Virus record (IMG/VR): IMGVR_UViG_2619619134_000005
Strand: one strand, 5' to 3'
Source: a virus
Lineage: Duplodnaviria > Heunggongvirae > Uroviricota > Caudoviricetes
DNA length: 22,047 nucleotides
Positions 16,150 through 18,087 of this stretch are shown piece by piece. How positions within the stretch are numbered: the first letter of the stretch is position 1; every line of letters begins with the position of its first letter. The translations under genes were made by a program, and so were the position numbers. The notes under the pieces were generated by a model. It was not told where the DNA came from. It ran no database searches and saw only the letters and a program-made list of their open reading frames with translations.

Positions 16150-18087
16150 TCAGCCGCCGGACGCACTGCCGTAGTTCACTCCGGTGATCACCGCCACCGC
16201 CGCGGTACGGCGACGACGCCAGTTGATCCAGCGCTCCGCACGGATGGCCACGCTGCCTGTCTGGAACATGGAAACCAGCTCCACCGGGGACGGCGTGGTA
16301 CTGTCGCCGCCCGGCTCAGACTGCATTTCCAGTGATGCCTCGCGGGACATATCCACTGCCACGCCGCCGTCATCCGCCAGATAAATATCCGGGGCATTCA
16401 CCAGCACCAGCTGGTCACCCACGTACTGGGAGACAATCACCGGCAGCCCCTGGAAGGAGCCACCCAGCAGGGTCATGTCCGGGTATTCCTTCTGACCCAG
16501 CGCATTTTTACGCATGGACAGTGCCAGGGCATTGGTGCTGGACATCAGCCAGACCGCACCGGTGGGCTGCAGGTTTGCTGCCACAAACTGGCCAAACGCC
16601 GCCTCTGCATCCGCATCCGGGTTACCGGTTGATGCCGTGCCCTTCACATCATGGGTGATGGACGCCGGGGAGACATCTGCCACTGCGGCTTTTTTCGGGT
16701 CCACAAAGTCTGTATCCAGACGCGCCACCACCGCTTCCGCCAGCGCATTACGGACCAGTGCATCAGCAGCCGGACTGGAAAAACGGATCAATTCTTCCGT
16801 CAGTACCGCAATGGCCGACACTTTCGCATGACTGAAGGTGATGGATTCAAAATCAAACTTCGTCAGGGGTCTGGCCTTACCCTCACCCACCCAGCCGGCA
16901 GCACCGCCGGACACCTGGGCGTGCACACGGATATTGAACGGCACCTGACGAAGTGCAGGGATCCCGCCCTGACCAAATCGCCCGATAATGGTCTGCGGAC
17001 GCAGGTAATCAATAAAGTCCTGTGCGTATTCCTGATATTCAGACAGGCTGCCTGCCCACTGCGGATCCGTGGTGGTCCCCGCGCCCACTGCCGATTTCAG
17101 GACATGATGCAGACGACTGTCATCCGGATACTGACGACGGGCCACTTCCAGGGCTTCAGATCGGACGCCTTTAGCCGCAGCCAGCGATTTGGCAAAGCGG
17201 GCGAAGCCAATCCCCTTATCCAGTTTCTGCTCCACACGGATCACCGGCGCAGAAGCCACCGCGGCCACATTCCCGTTACCGGCCTGTTTCACCGGCTGTG
17301 CCGTGGCGGCCTTACTGGTTTCCAGTTCACGCAGGCGCTTCAGGTGCGCATCCACCTGACGGATTTCCGCTGCGGTGTTGTCGTAGTGCTCTTCCTCCTC
17401 CACATCCAGCGTGCGCCCTTCCTCTGCGGCTTTGGTCATGACCTCCTCAAGGGAGGCTGCCAGCGCTGCACGCTTGTTTTCAAAACTTTTAATCTGTTCG
17501 CCAATATTCATTATGGTCTTTTCCTTATGAAAAACGGTTGTTGACTGTGCCGCAGCGCCGGCAGAAGATGCGATTTTCACCACCGGTTTCCGGTTGCCGG
17601 ACGCGGCAGAAAACGGGCGGTCGTAAGATTTAATGGTCCGGATGGTGCATTCCGCATTCGCGGGCACGGTGACGGCAGACACCTCCATCAGTTCCCAGCG
17701 CAGAAAATGCAGTCCGCCTCCGTCCAGAAAGGTGTATTCATGGGGACGGAAGCCCACGGACAGCCCCCTGACCAGCCCGGTCTTAATGGCCGCCCAGACC
17801 TCATCCAGCCGGGCAGCCAGTTGCGACGGCATATCCGGTACGGGCTTCACCAGTGTTGCCGTGATTTCCAGCCCTTCGCTGACCCGGCGTACCGTACACT
17901 GCCCCACCGGGCGGGAATGGTCATGCTGCCAGAGAAACGGGATCGCACTGCCAAACTCCGCGCCCTCCGGCTCCAGGATGTCACCATCCCGATCCGGAGA
18001 AGGCGTTGACGCAATCCCGGTGATCACCCGTTCATCCTCACTGAAGGATTTCACCGTCAGCAGGGAACAGGCCCGTTTAAGAGTCAC
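16150..18087 (-). CDS. prohead protease (S78/HK97 family) fused in-frame to HK97-fold major capsid protein
   Basis: 645-aa ORF starting at GTG (18085-18087) with an AGGAGG Shine-Dalgarno 5 nt upstream. N-terminal ~150 aa carry prohead protease motifs (IPFLWQHDH, LSVGFRP, MEVSAVTVPANAEC). The remainder has a coiled-coil delta-like segment and a capsid-like C-terminus (...SVAIRAERWINW). An internal ATG at 17509-17511 (MNIGEQIKSF...) has its own AAGGA Shine-Dalgarno. Confidence 0.85.
   Translation of the reverse strand: MTLKRACSLLTVKSFSEDERVITGIASTPSPDRDGDILEPEGAEFGSAIPFLWQHDHSRPVGQCTVRRVSEGLEITATLVKPVPDMPSQLAARLDEVWAAIKTGLVRGLSVGFRPHEYTFLDGGGLHFLRWELMEVSAVTVPANAECTIRTIKSYDRPFSAASGNRKPVVKIASSAGAAAQSTTVFHKEKTIMNIGEQIKSFENKRAALAASLEEVMTKAAEEGRTLDVEEEEHYDNTAAEIRQVDAHLKRLRELETSKAATAQPVKQAGNGNVAAVASAPVIRVEQKLDKGIGFARFAKSLAAAKGVRSEALEVARRQYPDDSRLHHVLKSAVGAGTTTDPQWAGSLSEYQEYAQDFIDYLRPQTIIGRFGQGGIPALRQVPFNIRVHAQVSGGAAGWVGEGKARPLTKFDFESITFSHAKVSAIAVLTEELIRFSSPAADALVRNALAEAVVARLDTDFVDPKKAAVADVSPASITHDVKGTASTGNPDADAEAAFGQFVAANLQPTGAVWLMSSTNALALSMRKNALGQKEYPDMTLLGGSFQGLPVIVSQYVGDQLVLVNAPDIYLADDGGVAVDMSREASLEMQSEPGGDSTTPSPVELVSMFQTGSVAIRAERWINWRRRRTAAVAVITGVNYGSASGG

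Follow-up and report, generated by a model that had tools for sequence, protein, structure and literature searches.

A single gene at positions 16150..18087 on the minus strand of the tailed-phage record IMGVR_UViG_2619619134_000005 (Caudoviricetes; 22,047 nucleotides, together referred to as the window) encodes a prohead protease, a linker, a delta/scaffold domain and an HK97-fold major capsid protein (MCP) in one open reading frame (ORF), and carries at codon 193 a conserved internal start site predicted to yield a second product that lacks the protease. All features of the window that are given here with coordinates lie on the same strand. The best explanation is probably that this is the shell gene of an HK97-like head module, in which S78 protease, linker, delta domain and MCP are read in one frame from two in-frame starts, the two products co-assemble and the protease afterwards removes itself. 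The architecture is conserved and the catalytic His and Ser are intact. Both the fusion and the gene order have long been catalogued (PHROG 617 and the annotation of Pseudomonas phage PAJU2), and to what is already known the conserved nested start adds a refinement that is reasonable and testable.

The frame runs unbroken for 645 codons from a GTG start at 18087-18085 to the stop codon at 16150-16152, and gives a protein of 645 residues and 69.1 kDa. PHROG 617 (‘major head protein’) matched residues 1-639 on profile positions 7-626 of 626 (E 5.1e-261), so that protease and capsid parts are both covered by one family profile. The GTG is preceded by a Shine-Dalgarno (SD) motif, AGGAGG (18093..18098), at a spacing of 5 nucleotides, and the duplex of this motif with the anti-SD sequence has a calculated energy of -10.3 kcal/mol. 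Relatives have GGAGG and ATG at the corresponding place, the full-length start codon being ATG in most of them.

Four consecutive parts can be recognised in the protein. The protease domain (residues 18-154; 17626..18036) is S78/HK97 gp4-like: Peptidase_S78 (PF04586) covers residues 48-152 (E 2.4e-8; 34.7 bits, the gathering score being 21), whereas the match to TIGR01543 stays under the equivalog cut-off (46.5 bits against 59); Pfam thus counts the protein as an S78 family member, and the stricter NCBI model does not. His55, Ser110 (in a GLSVGF motif) and S137 are invariant among 112 fused homologues with 36-78% identity. We take His55 and Ser110 to be the counterparts of His65 and Ser114 of HK97 gp4, and their invariance in all 112 sequences indicates that the protease part is under selection. 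The following Ala/Lys/Thr linker (residues 155-192; 17512..17625) is the most variable segment of the alignment and is rich in indels. The delta/scaffold domain (residues 193 to about 331; 17095..17511) was delimited from predicted secondary structure and from the TIGR01554 model, which begins at about residue 204, and its C-terminal boundary is presumed, at K331, from a non-significant alignment with the N-arm of HK97 gp5. The HK97-fold capsid body (residues about 332-645; 16153..17094) has a predicted mature mass of about 33 kDa. Phage_capsid (PF05065) matches residues 386-635 in the same frame as the S78 domain (E 3e-14; 53.5 against a cut-off of 24.2), and the NCBIfam model for HK97 major capsids, TIGR01554, matches residues 204-584 on profile positions 3-355 (79.2 against 27.5).

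An AlphaFold model built from the 112 fused homologues (mean predicted local distance difference test score, pLDDT, 82.6) agrees with this division. It consists of a confident beta-rich domain at residues 20-153 (pLDDT >90 over 20-150), a disordered stretch at 155-190 (pLDDT <50), a long helical hairpin at 195-262 followed by short helices up to 331, and a confident alpha/beta body from about residue 345 to the C-terminus (pLDDT mostly >85 for 350-640). In Foldseek searches the model resembles the solved HK97-fold capsids of Bxb1, D3, T5, HK97 and a chromosomal island of the phage-inducible, capsid-forming kind (cf-PICI), EcCI2 (E 5e-15 to 1e-9), while searching the PDB by sequence yielded one weak capsid match only (9d9w). 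The sequence-only reading of this DNA, which had placed a protease and a capsid protein in one stopless frame of 645 codons, is therefore borne out by the ORF list and the two Pfam domains, and the capsid fold that it proposed for the C-terminal part was recovered by profile and structure searches alike.

The same reading had suggested an internal ATG as a second start. This ATG (Met193; 17509..17511) lies 10 nucleotides downstream of the SD motif AAGGA (17522..17526) and is the predicted start of a delta-plus-capsid precursor of 453 residues and 48.3 kDa. Four independent lines of comparative evidence support it. In the AlphaFold model Met193 falls exactly at the boundary between linker and helix, and in Burkholderia phage vB_SBP39, whose MCP is separate, Met1 of that protein aligns with it. 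Free-standing MCP representatives (456-472 residues) likewise align there with their residues 1-3, the alignment beginning at query residues 193-196. Among the 150 best-scoring representatives of 50%-identity clusters, 144 are fused (identity 38-54%); position 193 is Met in 129 of these 144 and Val in 10 of the other 15, as expected for ATG and GTG start codons, so that Met or Val is found in 139 of them. An SD core is present 4-12 nucleotides upstream of the internal start in all 27 related loci, compared with 10.4% of in-frame background positions. This conservation falls within the most variable and indel-rich part of the protein, and the motif is encoded in at least seven amino-acid contexts (KGK, KEK, QGK, TGN, IGA, QEV, PEEG, SEP). 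It reads AAGGA in Enterobacterales and GAGGAGG in Pseudomonas (-12.3 kcal/mol, top 0-0.3%), and is also found in phage PAJU2 (AGGAGG) and in Rhizobium phage RHph_X2_26 (AAGGAG). Moreover, the linker/delta junction around the ATG is a trough in GC content, and in the window positions -30 to +30 fold more weakly than any other stretch of the gene (-5.8 against -18.7 +/- 4.5 kcal/mol). The same 60 nucleotides are the least-folded in most of 26 loci tested and belong to the weakest 5% in all 26 (median rank 0.000).

The gene thus possesses, inside a protease-bearing ORF, an in-frame internal start with its own signals, as nested dual-start genes do. Judging from these sequence comparisons, the site at 17511 is quite probably used as a start, and two products of 69.1 and 48.3 kDa are likely to be made. 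The short product had been described as capsid-only; its in-frame start is supported, but the predicted protein comprises the scaffold domain together with the capsid and would be an ordinary precursor of HK97 type. The two sites differ in character: the upstream one combines a strong SD with GTG and more structure, the internal one a weaker SD with ATG and an open context.

Some points weigh against use of the internal start. In the window its SD is only moderate (-6.2 kcal/mol, about the top 11% of in-frame positions) and the 10-nucleotide spacing is long; this single-sequence score is not significant alone, significance being found only in the comparative pattern, and the related loci that form the pattern are not phylogenetically independent. 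Low GC and weak folding could in part be a by-product of the Lys/Thr/Asn-rich linker and the A-rich helix that follows, and Val for Met is, besides, a conservative substitution. The upstream start is strong too, with its AGGAGG and with ATG in most relatives, and the ratio of the two products is therefore not predictable. In the literature searched we found no report of N-termini or precursor sizes for any member of the family, and no proteomic or Ribo-seq evidence for two products.

An alternative that we regard as rather unlikely is that only the 69-kDa polyprotein is made, every shell subunit carries a protease, and the internal ATG and SD are relics of two separate genes or accidents of linker composition. 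Relatives in which the two genes are split exist in Burkholderia, Moraxella and Stenotrophomonas phages, and the ATG and SD could hence come from a two-gene ancestor. Papers on actinobacteriophages report protease-scaffold-capsid fusions without a second start (PMC7302621, PMC5513430), and by a rough volume estimate 415 tethered proteases would fit in a T=7 prohead. However, at a divergence of 38-50% identity an SD that is only a relic would be expected to have decayed in the most variable part of the protein, and yet it is retained at every locus compared, in its various codon contexts and re-tuned to the host. The near-restriction of the start position to Met and Val, and the placement of the internal site in the least-folded mRNA of most loci, also argue against it.

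A third product, the protease alone, might conceivably arise if ribosomes underwent programmed frameshifting or terminated within the A-rich linker, through slippage of the dnaX type (A_AAA_AAG). Runs of A such as AAAAAAG do occur just 5' of the SD in some relatives (our loci L007 and L008), but they vary among loci in position and frame, and the sequence of the window (cat aag gaa aag acc ata atg) is free of slippery heptamers. We consider this reading very improbable and, as the window is without a slippery site, rejected it.

If both starts are used, assembly may be envisaged as follows. Initiation at GTG 18087 would give a 69-kDa protease-tagged subunit and initiation at ATG 17511 a 48-kDa ordinary HK97-type precursor (delta-MCP), and the two would co-assemble through the delta and capsid parts, which are identical in both. 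A fraction of the shell subunits would thereby bring a covalently tethered protease inside the prohead, and the ratio of the initiation rates at the two sites would determine how large this fraction is. After assembly the protease would remove the linker, the delta domains and itself, probably cleaving after a Lys near K331, and the mature shell protein that remains would have about 33 kDa. S78 proteases are reported to prefer Lys, as cited in PMC13517437. The alignment of K331 with the N-arm of HK97 gp5 is non-significant (hhalign, E 0.27), which tells against this site, and the cut after K331 is a guess that combines this alignment with the Lys preference. On balance we lean towards a nested two-product gene as the rule across at least 140 divergent proteobacterial phage clusters, with the conserved internal ribosome-binding site yielding an untagged beside a tagged precursor and the initiation ratio setting the number of proteases per prohead. 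We found no description of such a nested two-product protease-capsid gene in the literature searched; nor did the texts read on protease-capsid fusions discuss an internal start, although an earlier description may exist.

Similar arrangements are known for scaffolding proteins. The C/Nu3 gene of phage lambda is a nested in-frame protease/scaffold gene. In herpesviruses, UL26/UL26.5 produces a full-length protease-scaffold and an in-frame scaffold that is about 10-fold more abundant (PMC11565193). Both systems are like the one predicted here in making a long protease product and a more abundant, N-terminally truncated product from one frame, with a common C-terminal assembly domain that doses the protease into the procapsid. 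They differ in that the common part is scaffold only, whereas here it is scaffold plus shell protein, and herpesviruses use a separate promoter where an internal ribosome-binding site is predicted here.

HK97 itself shares with the window the S78 protease family, an MCP with an N-terminal helical delta domain (in the window a predicted one) and the HK97 fold, and the HNH-TerS-TerL packaging module. It is unlike the window in that gp4 and gp5 are separate genes with the portal gene ahead of them, and the sequence similarity to gp5 is marginal. The HK97 protease is reportedly targeted by its own C-terminal tail. Whereas targeting in HK97 relies on this separate tail, the covalent tether would do an equivalent job here.

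The fusion is real and ancient and no sequencing artefact, as its distribution among genomes and phages argues. Among 5426 complete E. coli genomes, 1258 carry the 5.9-kb stretch from TerS to portal, 1244 of them with at least 80% coverage, and it is nearly always full-length and 95-100% identical. About 90 phage records carry the protein at 96-99.5% identity, including those of phages 2851, BP-4795 and YYZ-2008, Stx2 (Shiga toxin 2) phage 1717 and many Stx1a/2a/2c-converting phages. Fusions of 644-650 residues with 73-78% identity are present in Enterobacterales (for instance Salmonella, Enterobacter, Klebsiella, Serratia, Pantoea and Kosakonia), and fused homologues occur throughout Proteobacteria. 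Two of the more distant ones, each with 48% identity, are ORF003 of Pseudomonas phage PAJU2, annotated as ‘prohead protease fused capsid protein’, and the homologue in Rhizobium phage RHph_X2_26. Split relatives form a distant minority in Burkholderia, Moraxella and Stenotrophomonas phages: the protease and MCP genes are separated by 13 nucleotides in Burkholderia phage vB_SBP39, are joined by an ATGA overlap in Moraxella phage Mcat5 (3001-4970), and are also split in Stenotrophomonas phage SOVA965 (2339-4424). The overlap in Mcat5 implies translational coupling of protease and MCP. The MCP of SOVA965 is annotated as two overlapping pieces, which could represent a frameshift or a sequencing error.

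According to the sequence-only reading, relatives with a stop codon between the two domains would turn the fusion into an artefact. This test is not valid, because a few distant relatives are split while thousands of close and distant ones are fused. The idea that the true state is two genes, and that the single frame is a sequencing or assembly error or, in a prophage that is defective, a pseudogene undergoing decay, could appeal to these few split relatives and to an IS1 element at the edge of the window, a sign that the prophage is not pristine. It is nevertheless refuted by the population and comparative data and was rejected, its probability being negligible: the open frame is identical or nearly so in the 1244 E. 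coli genomes and the roughly 90 phage records, fused homologues occur across Proteobacteria, and the catalytic residues are invariant.

Neither the fusion nor the gene order is new, and both are ordinary for this lineage of lambdoid (Shiga-toxin-type) E. coli prophages. Phages 2851, BP-4795, 1717 and YYZ-2008, the Stx1a/2a/2c-converting phages and PAJU2 have the same fused architecture, the same length and the same TerS-TerL-fusion-small ORF-portal order, and we saw no material difference between them and the window, which represents another copy of the module. Their proteins are 98-99% identical to that of the window, except for PAJU2 (48%). None of their records has an internal start annotated. 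Older annotations in such phages read ‘putative major head protein/prohead protease’, while the E. coli copies are named ‘phage major capsid protein’ by the Prokaryotic Genome Annotation Pipeline (PGAP).

Fusions of protease, in some cases scaffold, and capsid have also been described in Arthrobacter phages of clusters AM, AU and AN, Microbacterium phages of clusters EE and EL, Gordonia phages of clusters CW and DM, Rhodococcus phage RRH1 and Rhodobacter phages of cluster RcC (PMC5513430, PMC7302621, PMC6606914, 10.1101/2021.08.04.455094), and those of actinobacteriophages were characterised as unusual but recurrent (PMC5513430, PMC7302621, 10.1101/2021.08.04.455094). In annotations, ‘major capsid and protease fusion protein’ is a standard term. 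The actinobacteriophage and Rhodobacter fusions are like the present one in the protease-scaffold-capsid order within one ORF, but their sequences are unrelated or remote, their genes follow the canonical terminase-portal-fusion order, and they belong mostly to phages with small genomes. The window protein does not reach the cut-off of NF045541 (‘prohead protease/major capsid protein fusion protein’; 54.3 bits against 525, with a partial match at residues 48-287); this model covers a different fusion lineage. Papers on CBASS (cyclic-oligonucleotide-based antiphage signalling system) escape, the HK97 portal vertex, the D3 capsid, cluster O phages and Abitsa contain nothing on protease-MCP fusions, and neither do those on the actinophage capsid dendrogram, the ANT_H14 prophages and phage MD8.

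On the minus strand the genes follow the order HNH endonuclease (20663-21028), TerS (19809-20372), TerL (18151..19812; Pfam TerL_ATPase and TerL_nuclease), fusion, a 73-residue ORF (15884..16105), portal (14574..15938; Phage_portal, E 2.9e-80), a 353-residue repeat protein, head-tail connector and head completion protein. TerL lies directly upstream of the fusion, and the portal lies downstream of it. Farther along are a tail tube, a tape measure and J-like tip proteins, and the region represents the late genes of a lambdoid siphovirus prophage. The conserved 73-residue ORF, which overlaps the portal start, belongs to PHROG 829 (unknown function); it occupies the same position in most Enterobacterales relatives, and a small ORF is present there in Burkholderia and Moraxella phages and PAJU2 as well.

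We compared this order by tblastn of the head proteins of the window against 30 genome loci and several phages. Every locus, whether fused or split, has TerS, TerL, protease/MCP, the small ORF where present, portal, repeat protein and head-tail connector in the same succession, and the shared order spans Enterobacterales, Pseudomonas, Burkholderiales, Moraxella, Stenotrophomonas and one Rhizobium phage. In HK97 the order is TerS, TerL, portal, protease, MCP. As far as these genome comparisons reach, the TerL-protease/MCP-small ORF-portal order is an old and fixed trait of the lineage and a real departure from HK97. That the order differs from HK97, where the portal comes first, had been stated correctly from the sequence; it is not new, being lineage-wide and visible in phage genomes published in 2003-2009.

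The module deserves attention since many Shiga-toxin-converting phages carry it, as do about one quarter of the complete E. coli genomes. Use of the nested start would offer a simple and testable answer to how a protease can be dosed without a separate targeting signal, and would make the gene a phage counterpart of UL26/UL26.5 and of lambda C/Nu3, with the shell protein itself acting as carrier. In that case the label ‘phage major capsid protein’ would hide a protease and probably two products, which annotators should bear in mind.

Several minor observations concern the surroundings of the gene. The intergenic region of 63 nucleotides between the end of TerL (18151) and the fusion start (18087) contains a terminator-like hairpin with a T-run (18109..18126; seven pairs, loop of four nucleotides; consensus scan), followed by the AGGAGG motif. 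A GC stem and T-run just 5' of the SD also occur in relatives from Enterobacterales, Pseudomonas and Burkholderiales, and the HK97 record has a ‘putative terminator’ annotated directly before the protease gene (gp4). The hairpin may serve differential expression of terminase and head-shell genes, or may be an element for mRNA ending or processing.

The 353-residue ORF (13516-14577) directly follows the portal with an ATGA overlap. It contains tandem repeats of about 43 residues (PVPRDGRDYDP...ADGKSLTPDDVRPMLEQMVKEAVSHI) with a weak C-terminal match to CBM_5_12, and its length varies among relatives, the counterpart in PPyecE_EH1910 having 407 residues. PHROG 2271 (‘portal protein’, 859 positions) spans both the portal and this ORF, and in phage 2851 a single portal coding sequence of 2580 nucleotides is annotated; the two proteins may consequently be fused, or mis-joined, in some relatives.

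At the other end, a fragment of an IS1 transposase (21402-22046; PF03400, E 3e-74) runs past the end of the window. Beside it lies an ORF of 80 residues with a TonB_C domain, which in addition matches PHROG 1267 (‘Rz-like spanin’) over the C-terminal part of that family. This suggests that IS1 was inserted at the boundary between the lysis and packaging genes of the prophage.

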